Made by a program: the position numbers and the translations under genes. The notes under the pieces are model-generated. The model had not been told where the DNA came from and made no database searches. It saw only the letters and a list, made by a program, of their open reading frames with translations. Shown here piece after piece: positions 3,641 through 55,772 of a stretch of DNA of 64,000 nt (position 1 is its first letter; the number at the start of each line of letters is the position of its first letter). Source of the stretch: a virus; the IMG/VR virus record IMGVR_UViG_3300036945_000814, positions 43,026 to 107,025 of that record; one strand, given 5' to 3'.

Positions 3641-6600
3641 TGACCACACACGACACCATCGAAGACGCTTCCTTCGGTTTGCTGCTCAAGGCCGACATCG
3701 ACGACGCCCTCGACGATCTCGAAAAGGCTTTCGGGTCGGAGCGGGCCGGCCACAAGTACAGCTCCCGCCGACGCAACGCGAAAGGCGAGTGGGAGTACGA
3801 GTACGCCACCGACAAGACGAAGGCGCACGCGCAAATGGCGTTCACCTTCGCCGCGGCGCACGGCACCCCCGAGCAGCAGGATCGCGCCCTCGACGTGCTC
3901 AAGCGCGTCGAGCCGGACAGGTGGCCCGACCACGTCCACGCGGCCAACGTCGCGCACGAGGCCGCGGTCATCCACGCGGCGAACGTCGCCCACGAAGCGG
4001 CCGCCCGACCCCTGCCACCATCGCCAGCGCACGAGCACAGCCCCCCGGCCGCCGCCGCGCCCCCTGCCGTCGTGAGGTTCACGCAGGGCGAGCCCAAGCC
4101 CGCCGTCGCCGCGGCCCGTGCGCTGGATGCCTCCCGTGCGAGCCTGATCCGCGCTGGCATCGGCCTGCGCGCCAACGCAGAAGAGAAGACCCCTATCGAG
4201 GCCGTGGCCGGCCGCGCGGCCGCGCTTCGCAGCTCCGCCTCGTCGCTTTTCAATGAGTCGATCCGCATGGGCATCGTGAACGACGACCCGCGCACCGCGC
4301 GGAAGTTCACGGCCGAGGAACATCGGGCGCTGGCCGCCGCGCACACCGCCCTCTTCGACGAGTTCCGCGAGCTGTACGCGCGCTCGATGACGATGCGCAT
4401 TCGCCCGCCCTCCGGCATGACCGCCGCCGACGCCGATGCGCTCCGCTCCCAGCTCGAACGCGACTTCAAGGGGCACGCCAAGCTCGCTCAAGCCCACAAC
4501 GACGCCGCCAACGCGGCGTCGGGCAAGCCCGCACCCGCGGCCGCTGTGCCGCTCGTGGTCGCGCCTGTGGCGACTTCGGTCGCTCCGGCGCTGGACGCCG
4601 GCCCGGTGCAGCTCATGGACGCCGCCGCCCGCCTCATCGCCGAGCGTGCGAGCGGCGCGCCGCCGGCGTTCAAGGCCGTCGACAACAACCGCGTCACCAT
4701 CGGTGGCGTCAAGATGATCGTGCAGGGTGGCTTCCTCGGCGACGCTCCCGCGCACCGCGCGTGGGCGGAGACGGCCGGCACGTTCTCGGCCGACGCGCAG
4801 CACTTCGACGGCGGCCGGGCCTACCGCGTCGCCACCGAGGCGGAGCGTGTGGCCGCCGTGGCGATGATCCCGCGTCTCCGCGGCTCCGTGAACGTCAACG
4901 CGCCCGCACCGGCCCCTGCCCCGGCGCCCGTCGTCGCCGAGCCCGTGCGCCCCGTCGACGACTTCACCGGCGCGTTCAGGGCGCTGAGTGACGGCAGCGG
5001 CGCCGAAGAGATCGTGACGCTCCCGTCGGGATCCAAGATCGGGCTGTCCTACGTCAGCGGACAGGCCAAGGCGCGCCCCGTCGGAGGCGGCATCGGCCGC
5101 AAATGGGATGCGACCGCGACGAAGCGCGCCCTCGCCGCCTTCGAGGCCAAGGTCGCCGCCCTCGGCCCCGCGTGGCACGCCGCCCACAACGCCATGTACG
5201 GCGTCGCCGCCGCCCCGACGCCGCTCGTGGTGGCGCCCGTGGAGACGGCCGCGCCGAAGCGCAAGCGCGCCAACAACTTCGAGACGATGCCCGACGGCGA
5301 CAGGCCCAACAACTTCGACACGATGCCCGAGGAGATCAAAGACCCGTCGCCGCGCGCCACAAAGATCCGAGAAAACCGCGAAGCTCGCGAAGCCGAAGCC
5401 GCGTTGGAAGCCGGAGCCGAGCGACTGACGGGCGAAGAACGCCACGCCGCCCTGACCCGCATGGGCCAACACTTGCACGAGGTGCAGGACTTCCGGGCCG
5501 GCAAAGACGACACGGGCATGAGCGGCGCCGACATGCTGACGTGGCGCCGATCGACCACCGCACCCCGCAAGGCCAGCGTCCTCCGCAAGTACCGCCGCCA
5601 GCTCGTCGAGAGTTTCGGCGACCTCTACTTCAAGGCCGGGCTGCACGAGAAGGAGCCGATCCCCAAGGGGCACGTTCCTGCCGTCGGCGAATGGACCGAG
5701 CGCGGCGGGCTCGTCATCAAGGCCGACGGCTACCTCGGGACGAAGTTCAACGCATGGAAGAACCTGCTCAAAGAGCACGGCTTTCGCTGGAATGGATCAC
5801 GCGGCGACGAAAGCGCCGACGGGATGCACGCAGAGAAGGCGGCGCTGCTCGACATCCCCGGCTTCATCGAGGCGGCGAACAAGATCGGGATCCATGTCGA
5901 GATCCCCGAGAAGCCCGAGGTCGCCCTCGATGCGCCAGCGGCGGCCAACGAGCCCGAGGCGCCCCTGCCCACGCCCGAGCGGCCGTCGGCGGATCGCCCG
6001 ACGACCACCGAGGACACGCAGCGGGTCATCAACGCCATTCGCGCCAAGCAGGGCCAGCGCGGCACCGTCGCCGTCACCGTGAAGCCCGACGGCAAGTTTG
6101 CTTTCTACGCCGTCGACTACCGCAAGACCGAGGTGCCCGGCTCGTTCAACCACATCATGTCGAACAAGAACGGGCAGATCACCGGGCTCATGGAGGTCGA
6201 CTCCAAGGACGCTTTCTCGCGCACCACCTACGACGCCGCCCTCGTGACCGAGGCGCTTGGCAAGCTCCGCGACGCCAACCCGACCTTCCATTTCTACATC
6301 GACCCGAAGGCCGCCGCCGCCATCGACAAGGCCGGCGCCGACAAGGCCGCAGCCGAGAAGCCGATCCCAGAAGTCGAGGCCCTGCTTGCCGACGGCTTCG
6401 CGCTCAAGCCCTACCAGAACGCGATGGTGCGGTTCCTCGACAGCAACGACGGCAACGCCATCGTCGGCGACGAAATGGGCCTTGGCAAGACGCTGCAATC
6501 GCTCGCGTGGGTGGCGAAGAACAACAAGAAGGCCATCGTCGTCGTCCCCAAGGTCGTGCGCCGCACTTGGATCGAAGAGGCGCACAAGTTTTTCCCCGGA

Positions 6601-7962
6601 CACTTCAACGCGAAAGAGCTGCGATCCAAGGATCTGCTCACGAAGAAGAAGGCCAAGGCCGGCAAGGCCGACGCCGGCGGCCTCTCGTTCATCGACGAGC
6701 TGATGGCAACCGACAGCCCGATGGATCTCACGGGCAAGAACCTCGTGACGGTCAACTACGAGTCGCTTGAGAAGTTCATGCCCTACCTCAAGGCCGCCGG
6801 GTTCGACACGATCATCGTCGACGAATCGCACCGCGCGAAGAACCCGAAGGCGAAGACGACGCAGGTGATCCAAGCCATCGCGAAGACGATGAAGCATCGC
6901 ATCCTCATGTCCGGCACCGCGGTCAAGAACGGCAAGGATGAGCTTTTCACGCAGCTCGAAATGGTGAAGCCCGGCCTGTGGGGCTCGGCGAAGGAGATCA
7001 AGTTTTCCACGCATGGCGCTGCGTGGAACAAGATGCGGGACCACTACCTCGCGCGATCCAAGAAGAACGTGCTCAAGGATCTCCCCGAGAAGACGACCAC
7101 GATCAGCCTGCTCTACGCCCCCGGCGCGCCGGACATCGGCAAGATGAAAGAGCCGACGCCGCCACCGGCGAACGCCACCGCGAAGCAGATTGCGGCCTAC
7201 GAAAAGGCCGCCGAAGAGTGGGAATCGTGGATGGAAGGGGCCGCCGACGGCGACGGCATCAACGAGGACATCGGCGATCTCATGGACGGCGGGTCGTCGA
7301 TCGGCGAGTACAGCCGCGTCCGCGGCCAGCTCGCGCTGGCGAAGGTCGACGGCACCGTCGACATGGTGCAGGAGATCCTTGATAGCTCCGACAGCAAGGT
7401 GCTCGTGTTCACCGAGTCGGTTGCCGCGGCGAAAGCCATCGCCGAAAAGCTCGGCAGCGAGGCGATCCTGCACTACGGGCAGCAGAGCGACGACAAGCGC
7501 GAAGACGCGAAGAAGGAGTTTCAGCGCGAGGGATCCCCCAAGCGCGTGTTCGTCTCGACCCGCCCGTCGCTGGCCGTCGGCGCCACGCTCACGGCCGCCG
7601 ACAAGGTCGTGTTCAACGACCTCCCGTGGACGGCCGCCGACGTGCGCCAAGCCGAGGACCGCGCGCACCGCGTGGGCCAGAAGAACGCCGTCAACGTCTA
7701 CTGGAACGTCGCCGAGGACAACAAGTTCGACGAGAACGTCTCCGCCATCCTCCGCCGGAAGTACGACCTCTCGAAGAAGATCAACGAGGGGCAGCAGCTT
7801 TCGCCCGAAGAAAAGGCGTGGATGAGCAAGCCCGTCACCATGCGCGAAGTCATGGATCGCATCAAGGGCAAGCCCTCCGGCCCGCCCGAGCCCAAGATCG
7901 AAAAGAGCGCCAAGGCGCAGCTCCGCGACATGACCCGCGCGCTGATCAAAGCGGCAAGCTAG
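3640..7962 (+). CDS. Polyvalent protein with C-terminal SNF2/SMARCAL1-like SF2 ATPase
   Basis: LKPYQ, GDEMGLGKT (Walker A), IIVDESH (DExH), MSGT, QAEDRAHRVGQ at ~6400-7780; long Ala/Pro-rich N-terminal part. Start moved from 3631 to 3640 on promoter spacing. Confidence 0.85.
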   Translation: MTTHDTIEDASFGLLLKADIDDALDDLEKAFGSERAGHKYSSRRRNAKGEWEYEYATDKTKAHAQMAFTFAAAHGTPEQQDRALDVLKRVEPDRWPDHVHAANVAHEAAVIHAANVAHEAAARPLPPSPAHEHSPPAAAAPPAVVRFTQGEPKPAVAAARALDASRASLIRAGIGLRANAEEKTPIEAVAGRAAALRSSASSLFNESIRMGIVNDDPRTARKFTAEEHRALAAAHTALFDEFRELYARSMTMRIRPPSGMTAADADALRSQLERDFKGHAKLAQAHNDAANAASGKPAPAAAVPLVVAPVATSVAPALDAGPVQLMDAAARLIAERASGAPPAFKAVDNNRVTIGGVKMIVQGGFLGDAPAHRAWAETAGTFSADAQHFDGGRAYRVATEAERVAAVAMIPRLRGSVNVNAPAPAPAPAPVVAEPVRPVDDFTGAFRALSDGSGAEEIVTLPSGSKIGLSYVSGQAKARPVGGGIGRKWDATATKRALAAFEAKVAALGPAWHAAHNAMYGVAAAPTPLVVAPVETAAPKRKRANNFETMPDGDRPNNFDTMPEEIKDPSPRATKIRENREAREAEAALEAGAERLTGEERHAALTRMGQHLHEVQDFRAGKDDTGMSGADMLTWRRSTTAPRKASVLRKYRRQLVESFGDLYFKAGLHEKEPIPKGHVPAVGEWTERGGLVIKADGYLGTKFNAWKNLLKEHGFRWNGSRGDESADGMHAEKAALLDIPGFIEAANKIGIHVEIPEKPEVALDAPAAANEPEAPLPTPERPSADRPTTTEDTQRVINAIRAKQGQRGTVAVTVKPDGKFAFYAVDYRKTEVPGSFNHIMSNKNGQITGLMEVDSKDAFSRTTYDAALVTEALGKLRDANPTFHFYIDPKAAAAIDKAGADKAAAEKPIPEVEALLADGFALKPYQNAMVRFLDSNDGNAIVGDEMGLGKTLQSLAWVAKNNKKAIVVVPKVVRRTWIEEAHKFFPGHFNAKELRSKDLLTKKKAKAGKADAGGLSFIDELMATDSPMDLTGKNLVTVNYESLEKFMPYLKAAGFDTIIVDESHRAKNPKAKTTQVIQAIAKTMKHRILMSGTAVKNGKDELFTQLEMVKPGLWGSAKEIKFSTHGAAWNKMRDHYLARSKKNVLKDLPEKTTTISLLYAPGAPDIGKMKEPTPPPANATAKQIAAYEKAAEEWESWMEGAADGDGINEDIGDLMDGGSSIGEYSRVRGQLALAKVDGTVDMVQEILDSSDSKVLVFTESVAAAKAIAEKLGSEAILHYGQQSDDKREDAKKEFQREGSPKRVFVSTRPSLAVGATLTAADKVVFNDLPWTAADVRQAEDRAHRVGQKNAVNVYWNVAEDNKFDENVSAILRRKYDLSKKINEGQQLSPEEKAWMSKPVTMREVMDRIKGKPSGPPEPKIEKSAKAQLRDMTRALIKAAS

Positions 7963-10259: not shown

Positions 10260-12020
10260 GTGGACCTCATCAAGCCCGAGCAGATCCGCGCCATGATGGC
10301 GACGGCCATCGAGTCAAAGCTCTCGCAGGCCGTGCATGACGCGACCGGCGAGGCCATCGAGCGGCTTGTCGAGGCGCAGATCCAAGATCAGCTCGCCCCG
10401 ATGATGGGCGGGCTGCTCGCCAAGGGCAACGGCGGCGACCCCGGCCCGCGCCCCGGCCAGCTCTCGCAGACGACGGCCGCCGACCCCAAGGGCCTGCTCT
10501 ACGATCCGTTCACGGCCCTCGACCAGATGGGCTTTCGCGAGCGCCCGAGCGCCATCACGTTCCGCACGCTCGGCGAAATGGCCCGGCGGGTGCCGCCGTT
10601 CTCGGCGTACCTGCAAACGCGGTTGAACCAGATGGCCGCCTTCTGCGAGCCGCAACCCGACGAGCACAGCGTCGGGTTCAAGTTTGTCCTCAAGGACAAG
10701 CAGGCGAACCTGTCGAAGAAGATGCAGCGCCGCAACGACGAGCTGACCCGGTGGCTCTCGGCGATGGGCGACCCCGAGCTGAACATCAAGCGCGACAAGT
10801 TTGGCGCGTGGATGCGCAAAAGCATGTGGGATTCCCTCGTCTACGATCAGATGACGACGGAGATCGTGCCCCGCAAAGATGGATCGGCGCCGTCGTACAT
10901 CCGCGCGCTCGACGCCGCCACGATCCGTGTTTCCGACACGCTCGACGAGGTCGACTACATCGACGAGACGATCCAATACGTTCAGATTTACGACGACACG
11001 ATCATCGCGGAGTTCAAGGAACACGAAATGATCTTCGGGATCCGAAACCCGCGCAGCGACATTCGCTACAGCGGCTACGGAATGCCCGAGCTGGAAATGC
11101 TGATCAGCATCGTCACCGCGCTCCTTTGGGGCATCGACTACAATGCCAAGTTTTTCTCGCAGGGCTCGGTCGCGAAGGGCCTGCTCAACTTCAAGGGCGC
11201 CATCCCCGAGAAGGAGCTGATCGCGTTCCGCCGTCAGTGGTACTCGATGATCACCGGCGTGCAGAACGCTTGGCGCACTCCCGTCGTCAACGCGGAAGAC
11301 GTGCAATGGCTCAACATGCAGTCGAGCAACCGCGACATGGAGTTTGCGGCTTGGATCGACTGGCTGCTCAAGGTGACGTGCGCCGTCTGCCAGATCGCCC
11401 CCGAAGAGATCGGGTTTCAGTTTGGCAACGCGGGCCAGACCTCGACGATGTCGGAGGGCTCGCAGGCCGACAAGCTGGCGCAGAGCAGGGACAAGGGCCT
11501 CATCCCTCTCGCCAAGTTTGTCTGCGAACAGCTCAACGACAAGGTGATCGACAAGCTCGACAACCGCTTCCGGTTGGAGTTTGCCGGCGTGAACGCACGC
11601 ACCGCCGAGGCGTTGATCGACTTGCAGACCAAAGAGGTCAAGACCGTCAAGACCGTCGACGAGGTCCGCAAAGAGCGCGGCGAAGATCCATTGCCCGACG
11701 GGCTCGGCGCCGTCATCCTCGACTCGGTGTGGTTGCAGTTCATGCAGGCGAAGAACGCCGAGAAGCAGCAACAGCAGCAGGCCGGAGGCGGCGACGGCTA
11801 CGGCGCCCCGCCCGGCTCCCCGCAGATGGACGGCGCGCCCCCGTGGGAAGGCGACGGCACCGATCAGCAGGAGCAACCGGACGATGCCGGCCAAGGCGGC
11901 GACGTTGACGCGGGAGGCGCACCGCCCGACGATGTGCAGAAGAGCGGACGCAGCGGCTTCGGCCTTTCGCCGGCCCAACAGCGCGCGCTCCGCACGTTGG
12001 ATCTTGAGGTCGATCTGTGA
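10260..12020 (+). CDS. Portal protein (SPO1/Twort-type)
   Basis: IRNPRSDIRYSGYGMPELEM...YNAKFFSQG...KGLL, NAWRTPVV, NRDMEF...W, IAPEEIGF; position before MuF/protease/capsid. Confidence 0.9.
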   Translation: MDLIKPEQIRAMMATAIESKLSQAVHDATGEAIERLVEAQIQDQLAPMMGGLLAKGNGGDPGPRPGQLSQTTAADPKGLLYDPFTALDQMGFRERPSAITFRTLGEMARRVPPFSAYLQTRLNQMAAFCEPQPDEHSVGFKFVLKDKQANLSKKMQRRNDELTRWLSAMGDPELNIKRDKFGAWMRKSMWDSLVYDQMTTEIVPRKDGSAPSYIRALDAATIRVSDTLDEVDYIDETIQYVQIYDDTIIAEFKEHEMIFGIRNPRSDIRYSGYGMPELEMLISIVTALLWGIDYNAKFFSQGSVAKGLLNFKGAIPEKELIAFRRQWYSMITGVQNAWRTPVVNAEDVQWLNMQSSNRDMEFAAWIDWLLKVTCAVCQIAPEEIGFQFGNAGQTSTMSEGSQADKLAQSRDKGLIPLAKFVCEQLNDKVIDKLDNRFRLEFAGVNARTAEALIDLQTKEVKTVKTVDEVRKERGEDPLPDGLGAVILDSVWLQFMQAKNAEKQQQQQAGGGDGYGAPPGSPQMDGAPPWEGDGTDQQEQPDDAGQGGDVDAGGAPPDDVQKSGRSGFGLSPAQQRALRTLDLEVDL

Positions 12021-18760: not shown

Positions 18761-20200
18761 ATGAGCTACGGTACTTTTGTCGGCGCTTCCGACTACGACG
18801 GCATCGAAGGCTTCGGCTCGGCGAGCGCCGAGGAAATGCAGAACCTCAACAAAGCCTTGCGCTCCGGTCAGGACCGCAACGCCCCCGGCACCGTCGTCGC
18901 TGGCGACGGCTTCACCCTCAAGCCTGAGAGCTTGGATCGCACGTTGAAGAACGTGACGTACCGGATGGAGCACATCCAGTTCTGGAAGTTCCTCGACAAG
19001 ACCCCGGCCTACAACACGGTCGAGGAGTACAGCCGGCTCCGTGAGTACGGCAACGGCGTCGCGGCCTTCATCGAGGAAGGCGAGCTGCCCGCCGAGGACG
19101 ACGCGACCTACTCGCGTGAGTTCAACATCGTGAAGTACATGGGCACGACCCGGCGCATCACGCATGTGATGCAGACCGTGCGCACCCACATCGGCTCCGC
19201 GGTCGCGCAGGAGACGGTCAACGGCACCATGTGGCTGCTCCGGCAGGTCGAGAAGGCGCTGTTCTACGCCGACTCGTCGATGGTCCCGGCCGAGTTCGAC
19301 GGCCTCTTCACGCAGCTCGAAGCGCAGTCGCCGAACATCGTCGACATGCGCGGCAAGCCGCTCAACCAAGACGTGATCGAGGAAGCCGCGCACGTCATCC
19401 GGGCTTCGCCCAACTACGGCATCCCGACGGATCTGTGGATGGCCGACGGCGTCTACAGCGACCTCGCGCGCCTGTTCTACCCCACGCAGCGCAGCGAGAT
19501 CCCGACCCCGGCCAGCGCCGGTGACGGGTACGTCGGCTTCGCGGTGAAGGGGATGCGCACGCAGGCCGGCCCGATCCGGTTCCAGCCCGACGTGTTCATC
19601 GAGCCCGGTCGCGCCCCCGCGGCCGCTGGCATCGGCGACATCGCCAAGCGCCCCGGCCTCCCCACCATCGGCGTCGCCGCCGCTGGCGCCCCCGGTGGCG
19701 GTGAGGTGTCCCTGTTCGTCGGCGCCAGCGAGGACTTCCGCTACCGCGTGGTCGCGAAGAACCGCTACGGCCTGAGCGTCCCCGTGGACGTGAACGGCGG
19801 CGCCGCGATCACCGTGGCCGCCGGCCAGAAGGTGTCGTTCACGATCACCGACGGTTCGCCGTTGGCCTCGTGCTACGTCATCTACCGCACCAAGGCGAAC
19901 GGCCTGCTCGTCGACGCCGTCGAAATGATCACCGTGCGTCGCACCGGCGCCGTCACGGCTTTCGGCGATCTCAACAAGGATCTGCCCGGCACCACGAAGG
20001 CCGCGCTGTTGCAGGGCAACCGCGAGAACATCATGGTCAAGCAGCTCGCGCCGTTCACGCGCATCCCGCTCGCCACCGTCGACACGTCGATGCGTTGGTC
20101 GCAGGTGCTCTACCTGACGCTCACCCTGCACAGCCCGAACAAGAACGTGCTGTTCAAGAACGTCGGCCGCATCGAGGGCACCAAGAACCTCGCCGTCTGA
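18761..20200 (+). CDS. Major capsid protein
   Basis: LNKAL..LKPESLDRTLK..PAYNTVEEY..FIEEGELP..EFDGL..QLAPFTRIPLA resembles SPO1/Twort-type capsid proteins; strong SD; terminator downstream. Confidence 0.92.
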   Translation: MSYGTFVGASDYDGIEGFGSASAEEMQNLNKALRSGQDRNAPGTVVAGDGFTLKPESLDRTLKNVTYRMEHIQFWKFLDKTPAYNTVEEYSRLREYGNGVAAFIEEGELPAEDDATYSREFNIVKYMGTTRRITHVMQTVRTHIGSAVAQETVNGTMWLLRQVEKALFYADSSMVPAEFDGLFTQLEAQSPNIVDMRGKPLNQDVIEEAAHVIRASPNYGIPTDLWMADGVYSDLARLFYPTQRSEIPTPASAGDGYVGFAVKGMRTQAGPIRFQPDVFIEPGRAPAAAGIGDIAKRPGLPTIGVAAAGAPGGGEVSLFVGASEDFRYRVVAKNRYGLSVPVDVNGGAAITVAAGQKVSFTITDGSPLASCYVIYRTKANGLLVDAVEMITVRRTGAVTAFGDLNKDLPGTTKAALLQGNRENIMVKQLAPFTRIPLATVDTSMRWSQVLYLTLTLHSPNKNVLFKNVGRIEGTKNLAV

Positions 20201-26199: not shown

Positions 26200-26448
26200 A
26201 TGGCCGAGCTACTTGATCTTCTCATGCGCGGCGGCCCGTGGACCCTGCTTCTGGCGGCCGGGTTCACCATTCGCTTCCTCTTCATCGAAATGCGCCGACG
26301 CGACCTTGAGCACGCCGCGCAGACGCAGGCGCTCAACGACCGCATCGTCGCCAGCGTCGAAAAGCAGATCCCGCTCTTGCAGGCATCAAACGAGCAGAGC
26401 CGCAAGCTCGTCGACGCGCTCACGCGCATGGAGGAACAACACCGATGA
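26200..26448 (+). CDS. Holin-like membrane protein (one N-terminal TM plus coiled coil, BhlA/UviB-like architecture)
   Basis: MAELLDLLMRGGPWTLLLAAGFTIRFLFIEMRRR then a heptad-like region; true start is internal to the 25747 ORF call. Confidence 0.55.
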   Translation: MAELLDLLMRGGPWTLLLAAGFTIRFLFIEMRRRDLEHAAQTQALNDRIVASVEKQIPLLQASNEQSRKLVDALTRMEEQHR

Positions 26449-26858
26449 TGAGCCTTTTCCGCAAGAAGCCGAAGAACGTCGAGGCGAAGAAAAGCCCATT
26501 CGACGATTCTTCCACCTTGGGATCCATCCTGCTCCGCATGGGCAAGCTCACACGCGAGCAGCTTCACCGCGCCGTCGGGGTGCAGGCCCGCGCCGATGAG
26601 TTCCTGCTCGGCGCCCTCCTCGTCGATCAGGGCGCGGTGTCACAGGGCGACGTGGCGAAAGCCCTTGAGATCCAACATCAACTTCGCACAGGCTCCGGCG
26701 CTGACGCCGAGCTGTCCCTGCTCGAAACGGCGATGGACGAGGCGACCGAGGCGAACATCGCCCTCGCCGCGGCCATCGAACGTCGGAAGCAAGGGCAGCG
26801 CCGCCGGGGCGAGAACACGGGGCTCTTTCTCGTCCCCCCGAGACTGCGCACCGCATGA
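26445..26858 (+). CDS. Stand-alone MshEN-domain (c-di-GMP-binding-type) protein
   Basis: Tandem LGxxLLxxGxLxxxxLxxxVxxQ / LGxxLVxxGxVxxxxVxxxLxxQ motifs. Confidence 0.75.
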   Translation: MMSLFRKKPKNVEAKKSPFDDSSTLGSILLRMGKLTREQLHRAVGVQARADEFLLGALLVDQGAVSQGDVAKALEIQHQLRTGSGADAELSLLETAMDEATEANIALAAAIERRKQGQRRRGENTGLFLVPPRLRTA

Positions 26859-27367
26859 TCCTCGGCACCGTCGGCAAGCCCTTGCTGCTTGAGCTTGTGC
26901 TCGCCGACCGTGCCGGCGGGAAGTTCCCGCGCGCCCGCATCATCGACACCGTCGGCGCGCAGATCGGAAGCCCCATCGACCTCGTCGGCGCTCCGGCATG
27001 GACGGGGCTCTATCAGGGCTCGTGGGCGCTCCCTGCGGCCGGGCACTACTCGGTGGTCTTCGAGACGTACAACGACGCGCTGCACACGCTCCCGACCGAC
27101 CACGAGCCCGGCGTCGAGCACGTCCGCATCGTCTCCGACTTCGAGCTGTCGCTGCTCAAGCTGCTCGCCCACCAAGGCGAGAACGTGCGCGACACCATGA
27201 TCACCCCCGACCCGGCCACAGGCCGCCCGATCACAGCTCGGCGCAAGCTCTACGCCACCAAGGCCGACGCGCTGGCCGACGTGAACGTGGTCGCCACCAT
27301 CGACGTAGCCGCCAGCTACCCCGGCCCCCTGACGTGGACCGAGCTTGTGCGGGTGCTCACGCCATGA
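26855..27367 (+). CDS. Hypothetical virion protein
   Basis: ATGA overlap, 170 aa. Confidence 0.6.
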   Translation: MILGTVGKPLLLELVLADRAGGKFPRARIIDTVGAQIGSPIDLVGAPAWTGLYQGSWALPAAGHYSVVFETYNDALHTLPTDHEPGVEHVRIVSDFELSLLKLLAHQGENVRDTMITPDPATGRPITARRKLYATKADALADVNVVATIDVAASYPGPLTWTELVRVLTP

Positions 27368-31723: not shown

Positions 31724-32017
31724 ATGGCGCGACGAGACAAGCCCGAAGAGAACGAGCCGGCCGCGGAGCCCGAAGCCGCTCCCGCGGCGCCCGTGTCGCA
31801 TGTGCTCGTCGGAGCTGCCGCGCACGACCCTCTCGCCCACCGAGAGCAGGCCGGCCCGTCGCTCCTCACCGCGGCGACGTGGGCCGCGGCCAAGAAGCTG
31901 CGCGCGGTCGACATCGCCGGCTTCCTCATGTGGACGAAGGCGAACGCGCCCGATCTCCTCTCCGCCGATGAGTGGGCCACCACCCTCGCGACGTTCCAGC
32001 AGACCCCCATCAAGTAG
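31724..32017 (+). CDS. Small hypothetical protein
   Basis: AGGAG SD, ATG 31724. Confidence 0.6.
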   Translation: MARRDKPEENEPAAEPEAAPAAPVSHVLVGAAAHDPLAHREQAGPSLLTAATWAAAKKLRAVDIAGFLMWTKANAPDLLSADEWATTLATFQQTPIK

Positions 32018-32025
32018 GAGCCCCC

Positions 32026-34299
32026 ATGCCGGCCACGCAGCTCTTTTTCAACGGTCGTCTCACCCCCCGTCCCGGCGCCTACAGCAAGGTCGACGCCTCG
32101 GGCTTCGACTCCGCTGGCCTCGGTGCCAGCGGCATCATCGCGCTGCTCGGCGAGAGCGTGGGCGGCAAGCCCTACACGGCCGTCGAGATCCCGCGCGACG
32201 ACTTGCAGCGCGCATCGAACACGGGGCAGGTGAAGCGCCTGTTTCGCTCGGGCGATCTGCTCGAAATGTCGCTGCCCATGTTCACGCCGGCGAAAGACCC
32301 TGAGATCCAAGCCGGAGCGCAGCAGGTCGTCTTCGTCAAGGTGAATCCGGCCACGCAGTCGCAGGCCGACTTCAACAACGCCGACGGCGCCGCCCTCCGC
32401 CTCAAGAGCGCCGACTTCGGCGCCTTCACCACGCAGATCAAGGCGACCATCGCGAACGCCACGAGCGGCGTCGGCAAGCTCGTCACCCTCAACTTCGAGG
32501 ACACGACCGAGACGTTCGATCTGCTCGGGAACATCGCCAAGTTCTCGCTCACCTACAACGGCGGCGCCGACGGTGCGACGGCCGTGCGAGCCAACACGCT
32601 CGCCACCGGCATCACGATCGAGTTCGACCGATCCGACCTCGGCCAAGACACGGCCGTCGTGCAGGCGCCCGCGGCAAGCGCGCTTGAGCTTGTGTCGTCC
32701 TCCGCGGGCGACACCACGCAAACCGCGACCGTCTACGGCCTCAACGGCAGCAACGTGCCCACGATCGCCGTCGTGCCGCTCACGGGCACCGTCGCCGCGG
32801 CGCTCGCGGGAACGTGGAACCTCGTGACGGCCATCGTCCTGTCGGCCGTCGCCGTGGGAACGGTCACCCTCCGCATCGGCGGCGCCGGCGCCACCGTTGT
32901 CACGCTGTCGCCCGGACAGGTGAACAAGGGCCGCGTCACGCTCGACATCCCGGCTGCCAGCAGCCTCACCGTCGAAGCGGATGGCGCGACCGTGCGCAAG
33001 ATCGTCTACCGGGGCCTGACCGCCGCCGGTGCTTCGCTGGCGGAGGTGGCGACGCTCAACGGGACCACCCCGGTCGCGCTCGCCGGGGCTTTCGCCCGGC
33101 TGACCTCGGTCGAGGTGTTGAACGTCGAGACGGCGCGCACGGCGGCCGTCAAGGGGCTCACCATCGACGCCCCGGTCGCGACCTACCCCAACTTGCAGAA
33201 GGCGAAGGACTTGATCTCGGCCAACCCCGACTTCACGTTCACGTCGATCATCGGCAACGCCAAGGACTTCCTCGTCGCCGACCTCGACTACGTCAGCGAC
33301 GTCAGCGTGCTCACGCCGACGACGGCGTCGTTCTTCGCCAAGCTCTTTGACATCGTGTCGGAGCTGAACAGCAAGTCGTCGCTCGTGATCGCGTCTCGTC
33401 TCTCGCCCGGCACAGGCGCGCCGACGAACACGGTCGGCGGGGTCTTCCTCGCCGGCGGCGCCGAGAACAGCCCGGCCAGCGCCGGCGACTGGCAGGCGGC
33501 CCTCGACAAGCTCAAGCAGGTGTTCGTCAACACGATCGTGCTCGGCACCGACGACGCCGCTACCCACGCCGCGGGCGTGGCGCACTGTGCGTTCATGGGC
33601 GGCGCGGGCAAGATGGAGCGGGACATCGTCGTCGGCGCCGCGGCCAACGAGACGAAGGCGCAGCTCAAGGCTCGCGCCCTCGCGCTCAACAGCCGGCACG
33701 TCCGTCTCGTCGGGCAAGAGGTGTCGATGTTCAACGCGGCTGGCGAGACGGCGTGGCAGCCGCCGAAGTTTCTCGCGGGCCTCGTGGCGGCCATGCAGGC
33801 GGGCACGTCCGTCGGCAACCCGCTCACGAACAAGTACGTCAACGTCCTCGGCTTCCGCCAGAACGCCACGATCAACGGGTGGAACCCGATCGACACGGGC
33901 GACGAAATGCTGCTCGCGGGCCTGCACTTCGTGCAGCTCGAAGAGGGCAAGGGCTTCAAGATCGTGCGGAACATCACCACGCACCTCGTCGACGACAACC
34001 TCGTCTTCGTCGAAGCGTCGATGAACCAAGCGGTCAACTTCGCGGTCTACAACCTGCGCACGCGCATGGAGACGATCGTCGGCAAGAAGGGGTTTGCGCG
34101 CACCATCAACGCGGCCAAGGCCGCCGCCGACGGCGTGCTCGAAGCCCTCGTGCGCGAGGAGATCATCGCGGCGTACAAGAAGCCGGCTTTCGAGCTGGCC
34201 CTCGACGTCCTGCGGATGGACGTCGCCCTCGCCGTCATCGCCCCCGTCAACTTCGTCCCGATCACCGTGAACCTCTACCCCCTGTCGATCACGGCGTAG
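32026..34299 (+). CDS. Contractile tail sheath protein
   Basis: FFNGRLTPRPGAYSKVD..ALLGESVGGKP..FRSGDLL..VGNPLTNK..IVRNITT..PVNFVPITV; AGGAG SD. Confidence 0.92.
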   Translation: MPATQLFFNGRLTPRPGAYSKVDASGFDSAGLGASGIIALLGESVGGKPYTAVEIPRDDLQRASNTGQVKRLFRSGDLLEMSLPMFTPAKDPEIQAGAQQVVFVKVNPATQSQADFNNADGAALRLKSADFGAFTTQIKATIANATSGVGKLVTLNFEDTTETFDLLGNIAKFSLTYNGGADGATAVRANTLATGITIEFDRSDLGQDTAVVQAPAASALELVSSSAGDTTQTATVYGLNGSNVPTIAVVPLTGTVAAALAGTWNLVTAIVLSAVAVGTVTLRIGGAGATVVTLSPGQVNKGRVTLDIPAASSLTVEADGATVRKIVYRGLTAAGASLAEVATLNGTTPVALAGAFARLTSVEVLNVETARTAAVKGLTIDAPVATYPNLQKAKDLISANPDFTFTSIIGNAKDFLVADLDYVSDVSVLTPTTASFFAKLFDIVSELNSKSSLVIASRLSPGTGAPTNTVGGVFLAGGAENSPASAGDWQAALDKLKQVFVNTIVLGTDDAATHAAGVAHCAFMGGAGKMERDIVVGAAANETKAQLKARALALNSRHVRLVGQEVSMFNAAGETAWQPPKFLAGLVAAMQAGTSVGNPLTNKYVNVLGFRQNATINGWNPIDTGDEMLLAGLHFVQLEEGKGFKIVRNITTHLVDDNLVFVEASMNQAVNFAVYNLRTRMETIVGKKGFARTINAAKAAADGVLEALVREEIIAAYKKPAFELALDVLRMDVALAVIAPVNFVPITVNLYPLSITA

Positions 34300-35675: not shown

Positions 35676-37997
35676 ATGACGACGAACAAGGTCGAAACGA
35701 CAATCGCCTACAAGCTCGATGCCCGCGGCCTTCGGGACGCGAAGCGCGAGCTTGAAAAGTCGTTCAAGCCCGACAGCATCACCGCCCTCAACAGCGCCCT
35801 CAAAGATGCCCGCACGCGGGTGAAGGATCTGAGCGCCGAGTACGCGAACGCGGCGAAGCAGACCGGGGCGATGGCGGAGTTTCCGAAGACGCTCCGCGAG
35901 GGCCTGCGCACGGCGCGCGAGGAGGTCCGGCGGCTGACCGACGACCTCGGCAAGCAGCTCGGCGCCGAGCAAAAGCTGCACGACCTCCGGGTGAAGTCGG
36001 CGATGCTCGCCAAGGTCACGCGCGCGCGGGAACAGCTCGCCGCCGCGGTGGCCGACGGCAAGTTCAAGAAGGGCGGCGCCGGCGTCGGCCGCATGACCGA
36101 CAGCGAGGCCCTGCACGCCGCGTCGGCGATGAACCGGGGCACCGCTTTCCGACAGGGCATCTACCAAGGGCTCGGCGGCCCGATCTCGCAGTTCATGCAG
36201 CGCCGGGACGGCGCGACGACGGCCGAGCAGCGCGCGGAAATGCGCTCGCAGTTCACCGGGCAGATGATCGGCGGCGCGGTATCCACCATCGGCCGCGGGA
36301 CGATGCAGGCCGGCCGCACGGCCCTCAACATGGGCTCGGCGATGGCCGGCGGCGCTGGCCCGATGAGCACCGTGCTCGGGAGCATCCCCTTTCTCGGCGG
36401 CGCGGCGGCGCTGGCCGAAGGCGCCGTCGGCTCTTTCGTCGACCGCCAGCGGGCCAACCTCGGTGCCCTCCCGTTCATGGGCGGGGCCATCGCCGAAAGC
36501 CAAGCTCGGGGCAATGCAGCCCGCGCAGCGGTCATGCGTAGCGGCGCCGCCGGGGATGCCGGCGTCACCGCCGGCGGCCGCGATGCCTTCCTCAACAACA
36601 TGGTCGGCGCAGGCACGGGCGCTCGAAACCGCGCCGCGGCCATGCAGGAGGCCGTTGCGGGCGTCTATGGCAAGCGCCCGGATGCCGACTACGACGTTTT
36701 CAACGACATCCGGGCAGGCAAGGTCGGCGTCTCCCAGATTCCCGGCCTGAGCCCCGGCGAGCGCGCCGAGATCGCCAACGCCGCCCGGACCCGCATCGCC
36801 GACAAGGGCGTGGCCGCCCTCTCCGGGCAGAGCGCCGACCGGGCCGGGCAAGTCGCGCTCGAAGAACACCGCAAGGCCACAGTGAAGCGCGCCGACGAGG
36901 CATACGCCGAAGCCGCGGGCGATCCCTTTGCCGGCGCCAAGGCCGCGGTCCACGGGCTCATGACAGGAACCGAGGCGATCCAAGCAAGCACGGCGTTCAC
37001 GCGGAAAGTCGGGGGCGGCGTCAACGACGATCAGTTCGCCCAAGCCTTCGCCGGCGAAACCCTGTCAGGTGTCGATCAAGGCACGAGCGCGGCCTTGTTC
37101 AAGGCGCAGCGCGCTGGCCGCGGTGGCACATCGAAGAACGAGCGGGACATGCTCGCCAAGGCCATCGGCGCGGCGACGGCGCAGGGCCTCGAAGGGTCCG
37201 AGATCGGCGAGTTTCTGGACGTCATCGCCAGCGCACAGGCGGAGTCTTCGCAGAAGGGCCTTTCCCTCGACACCGACGCGCTCGGCGACATGGCCGTCGC
37301 GCTTTCGCGCGCAGGGCTCGCAGGGCCGCAGGCCGGGCGGGTCATGGCGGGCGTGTCGAGCTTCGCCGAGGACCAGCTCACGAGCGGCGTGAAGGGTCCG
37401 CTCGGCATCGCGCTCATGCGCTCGCAGGGCTTCGATCCAAGCAAAGGCAACTTCCTCGAAACGCGCGCCAAGCTCGCAGGGGGCATGGACGCCGGCGGCT
37501 TGTTCGACTTCCTCAAGCAGATCGCTCCGGGTGAAGGATCCGAGCTGCAAAGAGGGTTCAACATGGAATCCGCGCTGCGCTCGGGAGGCATCAACCTCGG
37601 CCAGCAGGGCGGCGTTTCACTGGCGAACATGGTGAGCGGCGGCAAAGACGCCTTCATGGCTTCCATCGGCGACCGCAAGGGCACGGCCGACGAGCTGCTT
37701 GCCTCAATGGCGATGAAGGATTCTGCGGGCAACGCGACCACGCTCGGGCAGATGACCGGAGGCATCCGGGGGCAGAACGCCGTGCAGGATGCGCTCGTCG
37801 GCGCCGGCGGCGCTGCCGCAGGCAATGTGCAGGCGCTTCAACAGCAGGCGGCGAGCTTGGCGTCGACGCTGGCAACCAAGCTCGACGTTCCCCTGTCCGC
37901 GGTGACAAACGGCGTCATCACGATGTCGAAGAACATCGAGCGGATTCTAGGTTGGATCGACGCAGTCGCGGCCACAGGAAAGAGCGGGATGCCATGA
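35676..37997 (+). CDS. Tape measure protein
   Basis: Ala/Gly-rich helical ~770 aa after the chaperones. Confidence 0.8.
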   Translation: MTTNKVETTIAYKLDARGLRDAKRELEKSFKPDSITALNSALKDARTRVKDLSAEYANAAKQTGAMAEFPKTLREGLRTAREEVRRLTDDLGKQLGAEQKLHDLRVKSAMLAKVTRAREQLAAAVADGKFKKGGAGVGRMTDSEALHAASAMNRGTAFRQGIYQGLGGPISQFMQRRDGATTAEQRAEMRSQFTGQMIGGAVSTIGRGTMQAGRTALNMGSAMAGGAGPMSTVLGSIPFLGGAAALAEGAVGSFVDRQRANLGALPFMGGAIAESQARGNAARAAVMRSGAAGDAGVTAGGRDAFLNNMVGAGTGARNRAAAMQEAVAGVYGKRPDADYDVFNDIRAGKVGVSQIPGLSPGERAEIANAARTRIADKGVAALSGQSADRAGQVALEEHRKATVKRADEAYAEAAGDPFAGAKAAVHGLMTGTEAIQASTAFTRKVGGGVNDDQFAQAFAGETLSGVDQGTSAALFKAQRAGRGGTSKNERDMLAKAIGAATAQGLEGSEIGEFLDVIASAQAESSQKGLSLDTDALGDMAVALSRAGLAGPQAGRVMAGVSSFAEDQLTSGVKGPLGIALMRSQGFDPSKGNFLETRAKLAGGMDAGGLFDFLKQIAPGEGSELQRGFNMESALRSGGINLGQQGGVSLANMVSGGKDAFMASIGDRKGTADELLASMAMKDSAGNATTLGQMTGGIRGQNAVQDALVGAGGAAAGNVQALQQQAASLASTLATKLDVPLSAVTNGVITMSKNIERILGWIDAVAATGKSGMP

Positions 37998-54489: not shown

Positions 54490-54930
54490 GTGGAACCAGA
54501 CCAGATCGACATGCCCGCAGCCGTCGTTTCGATGACGCCCGAGCCGGCGGCGCCGCAACTCGCGGCGATCTTCGACGTGAACGCCCTGCTCACGCACTGG
54601 AACGTGCTGCTCATCGTGGCGGTGTGGGCCGGGATCCAGTCGGTCAAGCGCGCCTGCCCCGACGAGTGGTTCGACGCCGGCAAGCCGCTGGCGCGGCTTC
54701 TGCCGCTGGCGCCGCTCGTGGTCTGCTCGGTCGCCGTGTGGATCCCCGGCCCGTGGCTCGATCCCGCCGAGACGCCGGCGCAGAAGCTCATCCTCGGCGT
54801 CATCCTCGGCACCGTCACGAGCAACTTCCACACGATCGCCAGCCGGCTCGGGCTGCACTCGATCCTCGGCATCGAGGCGGACACGCGCAAGCTCAAGCCG
54901 TCGTCGTCGGATGAGGCGCCTGCCCCATGA
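54490..54930 (+). CDS. Holin-like multi-TM membrane protein
   Basis: Three hydrophobic stretches; end of the tail module. Confidence 0.55.
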   Translation: MEPDQIDMPAAVVSMTPEPAAPQLAAIFDVNALLTHWNVLLIVAVWAGIQSVKRACPDEWFDAGKPLARLLPLAPLVVCSVAVWIPGPWLDPAETPAQKLILGVILGTVTSNFHTIASRLGLHSILGIEADTRKLKPSSSDEAPAP

Positions 54931-55271
54931 CGAAGCTCAAAGCGGCATGGACGTGGGTCAAGGCGCACTGGCCCGTCGTCGTCGCCATCGTCGTCGGCGC
55001 CATCGGCTTCGCCCTCGGCGGCGCCTTTGTCCGCGAGCTGCGCTTTCCCGACAAGCGCGTGCGACGCGAGCTTGAAGCCGCCCGCGAGGGCGAAATGGCG
55101 GCCCGCGTCGCCATCGACCACGGCACCGAGCACGCCGTCAAAGCCATCGAGGAGCAGCATGAATCCACGATCCAAGCCCTCGACGCCGCACAGAAGGCCA
55201 AGTACGAGCGCCTGCGCGCGGATCCTCGCGCTCTTGCTGCTCACCTCTCACGCCTCTCCGACAAGGGCTGA
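54927..55271 (+). CDS. Rz/i-spanin-like protein (N-terminal TM plus coiled coil)
   Basis: WPVVVAIVVGAIGFALGGAFV then a helical region. Confidence 0.5.
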   Translation: MTKLKAAWTWVKAHWPVVVAIVVGAIGFALGGAFVRELRFPDKRVRRELEAAREGEMAARVAIDHGTEHAVKAIEEQHESTIQALDAAQKAKYERLRADPRALAAHLSRLSDKG

Positions 55272-55653
55272 CGAGCCCGACGCCGTCTTCGTCGAAGAGG
55301 GCGGCCGCGCGCCGTTCGATGCGATCTGCTTCCCGCCCGCTCGCGCGGAACGCCTCGGGGCCAAGGCCGAGACGTGCGAGCTTCGACGACAGCTCGACGG
55401 CCAGCTCGCCACCGACAGGGCCGCGCTACAGCTCGACGCCTGCAACGCCAAGCTCAAGCTCGCCGACGAGGCCGGCAAAGCCCGTGAGGCGCTGCTCGTG
55501 AAGGCGCTGGAGGACGCGCGCGAGGCCGGGCGTCGTGAGGTGTGGGAGGAGCCCGCAGCCGTGCTCGCCGTGGGCGTCGTGGCGGGAATCGCCGCCACGG
55601 TCGGCGCCGTCCTGCTTGTCGGCCAGCTTCGGCCGTTGGTTCCCGCGCCGTGA
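55159..55653 (+). CDS. Overlapping exported protein with C-terminal TM (spanin-like position)
   Basis: GGAG-ATG 55159, signal-like RILALLLLTSHASPTRA, coiled coil, C-terminal VLAVGVVAGIAATVGAVLLV. Confidence 0.5.
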   Translation: MNPRSKPSTPHRRPSTSACARILALLLLTSHASPTRADEPDAVFVEEGGRAPFDAICFPPARAERLGAKAETCELRRQLDGQLATDRAALQLDACNAKLKLADEAGKAREALLVKALEDAREAGRREVWEEPAAVLAVGVVAGIAATVGAVLLVGQLRPLVPAP

Positions 55654-55772
55654 GCTGGACGTGCGTGCTCATCGGGTTCGCCGCCGGGCTCGTGACGGCC
55701 CTGCCCCTGCTCGCCATCCGCCGGGGGCACCCGCGGGGGCGCCGCCGCGGCGACGTTGACCCGCCGCGTTAG
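55650..55772 (+). CDS. Small single-TM peptide (40 aa)
   Basis: GTGA overlap; MSWTCVLIGFAAGLVTALPLLAIRR. Confidence 0.35.
   Translation: MSWTCVLIGFAAGLVTALPLLAIRRGHPRGRRRGDVDPPR

Follow-up and report, generated by a model that had tools for sequence, protein, structure and literature searches.

A stand-alone MshEN-type domain encoded by a phage forms a conserved two-gene module with a single-pass membrane protein

Cyclic diguanylate (c-di-GMP) governs the switch between biofilm and motile states in most bacteria. The MshEN/GSPII domains of type IV pilus and type II secretion ATPases, including Vibrio cholerae MshE (5HTL), the GSPII-B domain of Thermus thermophilus PilF (8PDK), and Geobacter PilB, share two tandem 24-residue motifs and a four-helix bundle. 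Each guanine bound by MshE lies between a lid arginine (motif position 1) and a leucine triad, the backbone amides of positions 3-4 read the guanine, and the terminal glutamine binds the ribose-phosphate (PMC5013675, PMC12002112). Here we analyze a phage protein of this type, Msh137 (137 residues), together with TM82, the 82-residue membrane protein encoded beside it. Both genes lie in a 64,000-nucleotide stretch of DNA, hereafter the window, that comprises bases 43026-107025 of the 107,025-bp IMG/VR virus record IMGVR_UViG_3300036945_000814, rated complete by CheckV. Msh137 is a phage-specific variant of the known receptor domain and belongs to a conserved membrane module of two genes.

Msh137 resembles the ATPase domains in the Leu-Gly start of its motifs, the turn glycines, the leucine clusters, the terminal glutamine, and a motif II leucine lid like that of GSPII-B. 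Unlike them, it stands alone without fusion to an ATPase, lacks the alpha/beta subdomain, has a linker of 6 rather than 5 residues between the motifs, and belongs to a family with Ser, Thr, Asn, or Asp at the motif I lid; its additions are a long amphipathic helix, a C-terminal motif, a single-pass membrane partner, and a phage genome. Two other bacterial systems use the bundle differently. In NfrB-type glycosyltransferases, which are controlled by c-di-GMP through a C-terminal MshEN domain (PMC8669469), the bundle is fused covalently to a polytopic enzyme, whereas Msh137 is a separate protein beside a one-helix anchor and has no enzyme. The N-terminal domain of Xanthomonas citri PilB, seen with PilZ (7LKO), has the same four-helix fold (Z 8.7) and serves as a protein-binding platform without c-di-GMP, but it is only 13-14% identical to Msh137 and lacks the consensus motifs that the phage family largely keeps. 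Small helical phage proteins likewise target the pilus motor (the PilB inhibitors Tip, Aqs1, and Zip) or nucleotide signals (the sponges Acb2, Tad1, and Tad2), but these soluble proteins, encoded mostly by early or moron genes, act without a membrane partner and are unrelated to Msh137 in sequence and fold. The phage T4 antiholins RI and RIII, like other holin regulators, are small proteins that set the time of lysis through a membrane lysis protein, from its cytoplasmic or periplasmic side. Their likeness to the TM82-Msh137 pair is a functional analogy, with no relation in sequence or fold, and nucleotide sensing is not known for antiholins.

Msh137 comprises a basic N-terminal tail, a four-helix bundle, a long amphipathic helix, and a conserved C-terminal motif (Table 1). 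An initial annotation, made from the sequence alone, had proposed a stand-alone phage-encoded MshEN domain with a tandem match to the MshEN consensus, and both proposals were borne out. The tandem motif occupies residues 24-77, with motif I (T24-Q47) and motif II (L54-Q77) joined by the 6-residue linker. A phmmer search of Msh137 against PDB chains matched T. thermophilus PilF (E = 4.2e-8) and Geobacter PilB (~1.5e-3). A profile of 34 family members matched PilF at 1.9e-20, Geobacter PilB at 1.4e-7, PilF GSPII-B at 2.2e-5, V. cholerae MshE at 9.1e-5, and Myxococcus xanthus PilB at 0.013, and the HMMER alignments to PilF, PilB, and MshE spanned both motifs. The AlphaFold2 (AF2) model of Msh137 had a predicted local distance difference test score (pLDDT) of 89.1, with the bundle helices (residues 25-31, 37-50, 55-61, and 67-81) above 90. 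Foldseek superimposed this model on c-di-GMP-bound GSPII-B and MshE with root-mean-square deviations (rmsd) of 0.7-1.0 Å over 54-56 residues at a probability of 1.00, and VIA-align gave Z scores of 10.4-10.5 against 8PDK-type entries and 5HTL, compared to 5.3 for the next unrelated chain. Across the ATPase domains compared, identity was 27-35% and rmsd 0.7-2.1 Å over 54-59 residues. The phmmer, family-profile, and superposition scores thus place the tandem motif far beyond chance, and residues 24-77 of Msh137 are truly homologous to the N-terminal four-helix bundle of MshEN/GSPII domains. Helix 1 of the model has the geometry of the ligand-bound form, not the apo form. A search of viral folds in BFVD returned no meaningful match.

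After residue 81, the AF2 model contains helices only, with no alpha/beta subdomain. The annotation had noted a short helix after the bundle; one is present at residues 125-129, within the C-terminal motif, but the description omitted the much longer helix at residues 85-120. The C-terminal motif (RGExTGxFLxP) aligned with the start of a further MshEN-type repeat (..GEKTGEILV..) in the cellular protein P0120. It has the appearance of a vestigial third half-motif, one that may dock against the bundle.

The Pfam MshEN model, which had been suggested as a check, gave no match, yet this result does not decide the matter. PF05157 ('MshEN', T2SSE_N) matched neither Msh137 nor any of the 34 family members, and a scan of the whole phage was likewise negative. 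Within P0023, a cellular protein, our family profile matched residues 4-55, 141-194, and 195-253, and PF05157.20 matched residues 56-137, the alpha/beta subdomain between the bundles. The current PF05157.20 model therefore covers the alpha/beta subdomain alone and does not include the 53-residue nucleotide-binding bundle; because Msh137 lacks the modeled subdomain, the missing match is uninformative, and we discarded it as evidence. PatA_N/DUF4388 (PF14332) scored Msh137 at 13.7 bits (E = 0.065), below its 25-bit gathering threshold, and matched 20 of the 34 family members weakly (best E = 3e-4), in every case within profile positions ~30-97 only. The same model matched multi-repeat cellular proteins strongly (to 1e-14). 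These alignments suggest that the helical insertion of PATAN domains is the same kind of unit as the four-helix bundle.

We compared residues of the predicted nucleotide site across 59 family rows and 278 cellular domains. The annotation had raised as a caveat that both lid arginines are replaced. The replacements, T24 and L54, are real, but they are half the problem they seemed: a leucine lid binds in PilF GSPII-B, and the departure that stands is the Ser/Thr of motif I. PilF GSPII-B has K167 and L196 at its lids and binds c-di-GMP with a dissociation constant (KD) of 6 nM, its K167L variant binds at 2 nM, and introduction of arginine lowers affinity (PMC11731258); thus, a lid arginine is dispensable for c-di-GMP binding. 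The Q190E+Q218E double mutation of PilF abolishes binding (PMC11731258). At the motif II lid, where Msh137 has L54, the family has Leu in 32 rows, Lys in 6, Arg in 5, and Met, Val, or Ile in 11. At the motif I lid, T24 in Msh137, the family has Ser (38), Thr (9), Asn (6), or Asp (4) in 57 of 59 rows and never Arg, Lys, or Leu, the residues that dominate in cellular domains (Arg 84, Lys 54, and Leu 27 of 278). The Leu-Gly of positions 2-3 (L25-G26 and L55-G56), which in MshEN bundles contacts phosphate and the guanine edge through its backbone amides, is kept, with Gly in 57 of 59 rows in motif I, as Leu/Ile-Gly, and 56 of 59 in motif II, and the family also retains the turn glycines of both motifs and the leucine positions of half-site I. 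The terminal glutamine of motif II (Q77) is invariant (59/59); that of motif I (Q47) is Gln in 41 rows, Lys in 12, Arg in 3, and Leu in 3, so that Gln, Lys, or Arg occurs in 56 of 59. Judged by residue identity, half-site II is fully canonical, with a leucine lid as in the nanomolar-binding GSPII-B domain. Because one predicted half-site is canonical and the other has an altered lid, binding of c-di-GMP or a related dinucleotide by Msh137 is plausible, and we put its likelihood only slightly below an even chance.

The altered lid has a possible structural rationale. Ser, Thr, Asn, and Asp are classic helix N-cap residues. In the family, the motif I lid residue is preceded by a conserved Asp-[Asp/Glu]-Pro, giving the signal D-[DE]-P-[ST]-[ST], and helix 1 of the AF2 model starts exactly at motif position 2. 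Binding by GSPII-B requires unfolding of an extra N-terminal turn of helix 1, and a shorter helix gives higher affinity (L166G, 3 nM). As shortening of helix 1 raises GSPII-B affinity, the phage signal could by analogy be a built-in helix stop that keeps the pocket open.

An exhaustive HMMER search of 1.84 billion representative proteins (E <1e-3) retrieved 508 proteins of two classes: small full-length relatives of 92-155 residues and long cellular proteins in which 2-7 bundle units stand in tandem. About 60 family members came from this search. P0010, which ranks with the strongest cellular matches, is a family 2 glycosyltransferase (GT2) with five C-terminal MshEN-type units; it is analogous to the NfrB-type enzymes and illustrates regulatory use of the bundle close to the membrane, in a protein that is not an ATPase. 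In the ESM Atlas, the nearest clusters consist of hypothetical proteins and are 50-93% viral. Searches with tblastn of three family members against 50,697 phage records found no cultured-phage homologue, and Megablast found no cultured-phage relative of the surrounding 14 kb. The papers that we searched on MshEN with phage or prophage, on phage c-di-GMP sponges, and on phage c-di-GMP with holin contained no description of a viral MshEN-type protein and no phage protein that senses c-di-GMP through a dedicated receptor domain.

Scans of IMG/VR and metagenomes for gene contexts gave 25 loci before removal of duplicates (designated by L numbers below). The sole return of a scan of genome contigs, L005, was rejected as a family member: its match lies inside a 752-residue open reading frame (ORF) of a metagenome-assembled genome. 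Immediately upstream of the Msh gene, 17 distinct loci had a single-pass membrane and coiled-coil ORF (the window, L002, L003, L004, L006, L008, L009, L010, L011, L016, L017, L018, L020, L021, L022, L024, and L025), and the ORF coordinates put the two genes in overlap or only a few nucleotides apart. L012 and L026 instead have a membrane and coiled-coil gene directly after the Msh gene, and in L015 the upstream DNA is absent from the contig. Altogether, the pair occurs in at least 18 further contigs of uncultured phage or phage-like origin, at GC contents of 38-67% and with Msh identity to the window protein down to ~30%. Because the pairing recurs in 17 distinct loci, and in 2 more with the partner downstream, TM82-Msh137 is a conserved two-gene module and not a peculiarity of this virion operon.

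The pair has varied neighborhoods. It lies within a morphogenesis operon in the window and the closer relatives, where the same 170-residue gene follows it. In L002, L003, and L006, a patatin-like phospholipase gene lies directly 5' of the membrane gene (L002:4928-5725, L003:4836-5657, and L006:3911-4720); Pfam Patatin matches were 1.9e-17 and 1.7e-10, the L002 and L006 copies are 38% identical, and the gene is absent from the window and L004. Its product may assist lysis or membrane attack in connection with the pair. The L011 pair has a tail-fiber-like gene on one side and a holin followed by terminase on the other: a 172-residue holin-like membrane protein (L011:5333-5851; phrog_1299, 2e-5; Pfam Hol118, 0.005) is encoded directly after the pair, and the large terminase comes next (5877-7553). 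L022 is a 4.7-kb metagenome contig of small phage-like genes in which, two genes downstream of the pair, lies the gene (L022:1668-2306) for a 212-residue membrane protein whose GGDEF diguanylate cyclase domain is intact (Pfam 1.7e-35). No GGDEF gene was found in the window phage or in 9 related viral records. Lysis-type and c-di-GMP-type neighbors are thus occasional, each seen once or a few times. As its neighborhoods differ (L011 and L022) and its order can be inverted (L012 and L026), the pair behaves as a mobile two-gene unit that moves independently of structural genes.

In the window, the genes around the pair encode, in order, proteins of 294, 153, and 54 residues, TM82, Msh137, and proteins of 170, ~91, 218, 345 (phrog_772), and 265 residues (phrog_1004). 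The ATGA at positions 26445-26448 is common to the TM82 and Msh137 ORFs, as the annotation had reported, and a second ATGA overlap (26855-26858) joins Msh137 to the 170-residue gene. No promoter-like sites were found in the 23.5-29.5 kb region, terminator-like sites around the pair were no more frequent than in shuffled sequence, and RNA folding energy at the TM82/Msh137 junction was no better than that of shuffles (z 0.16). With no promoter or terminator of their own, overlapping ORFs, and unremarkable junction RNA, TM82 and Msh137 are therefore most simply part of a late operon and translationally coupled, and expression of the pair appears to be late.

TM82 opens with a short acidic stretch; its membrane helix (about residues 12-30) starts with a conserved G-G-P-W motif and is followed by an RRR cluster and a charged helix of ~50 residues. 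Its AF2 model is a single continuous helix from residue 2 to 81 (pLDDT 88.6). Homologues occupy the same position in 8 aligned loci and in further loci. Membrane partners across loci have G-(G/A/P)-(W/Y/L) at the helix start and a basic cluster after the helix, and all aligned partners have an acidic N-terminal flank and a basic C-terminal flank. Under the positive-inside rule, these flanks indicate that TM82 is probably N-out/C-in with its long tail in the cytoplasm. Msh137 has no signal peptide and no cysteine, and for want of a signal peptide would also be cytoplasmic. The conserved a/d stripe of Msh137 helix 85-120 and the prediction of TM82 as one long helix make a coiled coil a natural inference, either between the two proteins or of Msh137 with itself, with helix 85-120 as the candidate interface. 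No natural fusion of a membrane helix to the bundle was present among the proteins fetched. We also considered and rejected a spanin pair (i-spanin plus o-spanin): Msh137 has neither lipobox nor signal peptide and is a helical bundle of cytoplasmic type.

The annotation had called the partner holin-like, and this label gained no support from family searches. TM82 does have traits generic to holins, being small with one membrane helix and a charged C-terminus, but neither it nor two homologues matched a holin family in Pfam or PHROG, and L011 encodes a separate holin. The only recognizable endolysin of the phage, a 366-residue Amidase_2 protein (4.2e-11), is encoded at genome positions 36812-37912, which is 5.1-6.2 kb 5' of the window start and 32 kb upstream of the pair, with no membrane gene adjoining; the 563-residue gene directly after it we take to be the large terminase. 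Phage_lysozyme and SLT domains, searched for as an endolysin near the pair, were absent. Of these two candidate readings of TM82, a regulator of a membrane event fits better than the holin of this phage. Three other small membrane ORFs lie 3' of the tail-fiber genes (window 54927-55772): one of 114 residues with a coiled coil and a membrane helix at its N-terminus, one that combines a coiled coil with a C-terminal membrane helix (end 55653), and a short membrane ORF (end 55772). These are candidate holin or spanin-like lysis genes.

From the observed homology, fold, conserved pairing, and residue conservation, we infer a topology, a TM82-Msh137 contact, a ligand, and an output. TM82 and Msh137 would be made together from overlapping cistrons. 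Msh137 would be cytoplasmic, with core residues 24-81 as a nucleotide-binding four-helix subdomain, and its amphipathic helix would pair with the TM82 tail and hold the bundle at the inner membrane face. The ligand would most likely be c-di-GMP or a related guanine-containing cyclic dinucleotide, bound by a canonical half-site (L54, L25, V70, L74, G56, and Q77) and an altered half-site in which T24 replaces the stacking lid. The likeliest output would be control of a late membrane event, with lysis timing as the best candidate, and release of progeny would thereby be tied to the biofilm or motile state of the host. Tentatively, then, we read the pair as a conserved accessory module of tailed phages in which membrane-held Msh137 binds a c-di-GMP-type dinucleotide and controls a late membrane event, a proposal that we hold at somewhat less than an even chance. 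A more specific version is unlikely as a whole: Msh137 would be a minimal membrane-tethered cyclic-dinucleotide receptor, the first viral one of MshEN type, that reads c-di-GMP or a cyclic GMP-AMP (cGAMP)-type immune signal late in infection and relays it via a hetero coiled coil to a one-helix membrane protein; the latter would gate lysis, in some phages jointly with the adjacent patatin-like phospholipase. We count the holin after the pair in L011 and the patatin-like gene upstream in L002, L003, and L006 as points for a lysis output, and the GGDEF cyclase of L022 as a point for a link to c-di-GMP.

Several observations weigh against a membrane-held dinucleotide receptor with a lysis output. 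The Ser, Thr, Asn, or Asp at the motif I lid in 57 of 59 rows is a family-wide departure in which the stacking lid is lost, and the non-binding PilF GSPII-A has, among its deviations, a Ser at the corresponding place in motif II (PMC12002112). The alpha/beta subdomain absent from Msh137 supplies one contact elsewhere (D108 in MshE; D266/R268 in GSPII-B). In addition, the Msh137 gene lies inside a head-to-tail morphogenesis operon without its own promoter or terminator, GGDEF linkage occurs in 1 locus of ~20, and holin adjacency is the single case of L011.

The lost motif I lid would also suit a role without ligand, in which Msh137 is a protein-binding mimic of the PilB/MshE/GspE N-terminal bundle that, held at the membrane by TM82, traps or competes for a partner of the motor such as a PilZ-like adaptor, PilM, or PilC. 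Piliation would then be blocked, with the result that pilus-dependent superinfecting phages are excluded or progeny are prevented from attaching to dying cells. X. citri PilB uses this fold to bind PilZ instead of c-di-GMP (7LKO), pilus ATPases give the strongest sequence matches to Msh137 in the PDB, and the small phage proteins Tip, Aqs1, and Zip are known to target PilB (PMC11656802). We nevertheless consider this reading quite improbable. Identity to the X. citri PilB domain is 13-14%, compared to 33-35% to the c-di-GMP-binding GSPII-B domain, and the invariant Gln and the Gly pattern suit a nucleotide site, not a generic interface. By analogy to type II secretion, contact with the platform is thought to use the N-terminal domain, whose alpha/beta subdomain Msh137 lacks. 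A single conserved host target is also made less likely by the GC spread of 38-67%, and the apparently late expression speaks against a pilus decoy as well.

A dinucleotide-binding fold in a small, phage-only family could instead mark a sponge, which would act as a sink for c-di-GMP and leave a dispersed, low-matrix cell, or which would counter CBASS (antiphage signaling based on cyclic oligonucleotides) by sequestering 3'3'-cGAMP-type signals at the membrane site of phospholipase or pore effectors. The largely viral make-up of the nearest Atlas clusters (50-93%) agrees with such a role, and asymmetric half-sites could suit a mixed G/A dinucleotide. The sponge gene acb2 lies beside capsid genes. 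MshEN also binds cGAMP, although weakly (PMC5013675). This role is nonetheless distinctly unlikely: known sponges are soluble oligomers; an obligatory membrane partner is unexpected for a sink; one ligand per 137-residue chain is costly; a link to CBASS was seen in no locus; and late expression is poor timing for an anti-defense protein.

That the pair is morphogenetic, for example an assembly factor or chaperone that is anchored in the membrane and helps to complete heads or join necks, with the bundle as a stable helical scaffold, is the least probable alternative and very unlikely, for although the window and its closer relatives (L002, L003, L004, L006, L007/L008, and L009) have the pair between head and neck/tail genes and before the 170-residue gene, all of these genes being translationally coupled without a separate promoter or terminator, the pair of L011 lies between a tail-fiber-like gene and holin plus terminase, that of L022 lies in a cluster of small non-structural genes with the GGDEF cyclase, those of L012 and L026 are inverted, and tailed phages seldom use membrane proteins for morphogenesis.

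Whether it serves as an input to the lysis clock, a sink for the signal, or a decoy for the pilus motor, a phage module of this kind, conserved and based on the MshEN bundle, would link viral decision-making to host lifestyle signaling at a new point. If the lysis-gating receptor is correct, burst timing would depend on whether the host is in the biofilm or the motile state. Msh137 is also a natural minimal version of the domain, with ~60 residues, no alpha/beta subdomain, and one altered half-site, and this form is useful for defining which motif features nucleotide binding needs. The pair is small and easily synthesized, and the key questions are approachable without the host.

The phage has a GC content of 67% and carries nearly all of its genes on the + strand. 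Tube and sheath initiators and baseplate J are among its genes and mark it as a contractile-tailed type; portal, capsid, and sheath genes are also present (Table 1), and large polyvalent proteins are encoded upstream in the same phage. The TM82-Msh137 pair lies between the head genes and the neck/tail genes of the window. The annotation had hinted at a Myxococcota host, which gains no particular support from the data examined: the module spans 38-67% GC, and the nearest cultured relatives of the capsid (33% identity) infect the unrelated hosts Bacillus and Bacteroides.

Table 1. Positions of the TM82-Msh137 pair, its parts, and other features in the window.
Feature	Position	Strand	Basis or remark
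Portal	10260-12020		
Major capsid protein, SU10-like	18761-20200		
TM82, 82-residue membrane partner	26200-26448	+	ORF
Predicted transmembrane segment of TM82, residues about 13-30	26236-26289	+	Hydrophobic stretch in translation
GGAGGA Shine-Dalgarno for Msh137, 9 nt 5' of ATG, within end of TM82 coding sequence	26430-26435	+	Read from sequence
Msh137, 137-residue stand-alone MshEN_N-type protein	26445-26858	+	ORF, homology, AF2
Motif I, T24-Q47	26514-26585	+	L2, G3, G10, L17, and Q24 of motif kept; lid is Thr
Motif II, L54-Q77	26604-26675	+	Lid Leu corresponds to L196 of PilF GSPII-B; G56 and G63 kept
Long amphipathic helix, residues 85-120 (36 residues)	26697-26804	+	AF2, alignment; hydrophobic a/d stripe 86, 90, 93, 97, 107, 111 conserved
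C-terminal motif R-x-x-G-E-x-T/S-G-x-F/W-L-x-P	26799-26837	+	Conserved
170-residue gene, ATGA overlap with Msh137	26855-27367	+	Conserved beside pair in many relatives
Sheath	31972-34299		

The 170-residue gene downstream of Msh137 gave tblastn matches in L002, L003, L004, L006, L007/L008, and L009, and ORFs that appear similar by eye occur in L015, L016, L017, and L020; its product is probably a virion or morphogenesis protein. In low-GC relatives, a conserved protein of 178-183 residues with a C-terminal Cys motif is encoded upstream of the pair (L010:3768-4319, L020:1193-1729, and L023:1053-1604), one gene away in L010 and L023 and adjacent in L020; the L010 copy matched phrog_1128 (3.9e-9) and no Pfam family. 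L007 and L008 are the two ends of IMGVR_UViG_3300042898_006838 (155,932 bp), with the membrane gene seen in L008. Because the Msh gene and the 170-residue gene match at both contig ends, the pair lies within a terminal repeat or an assembly overlap of that genome.

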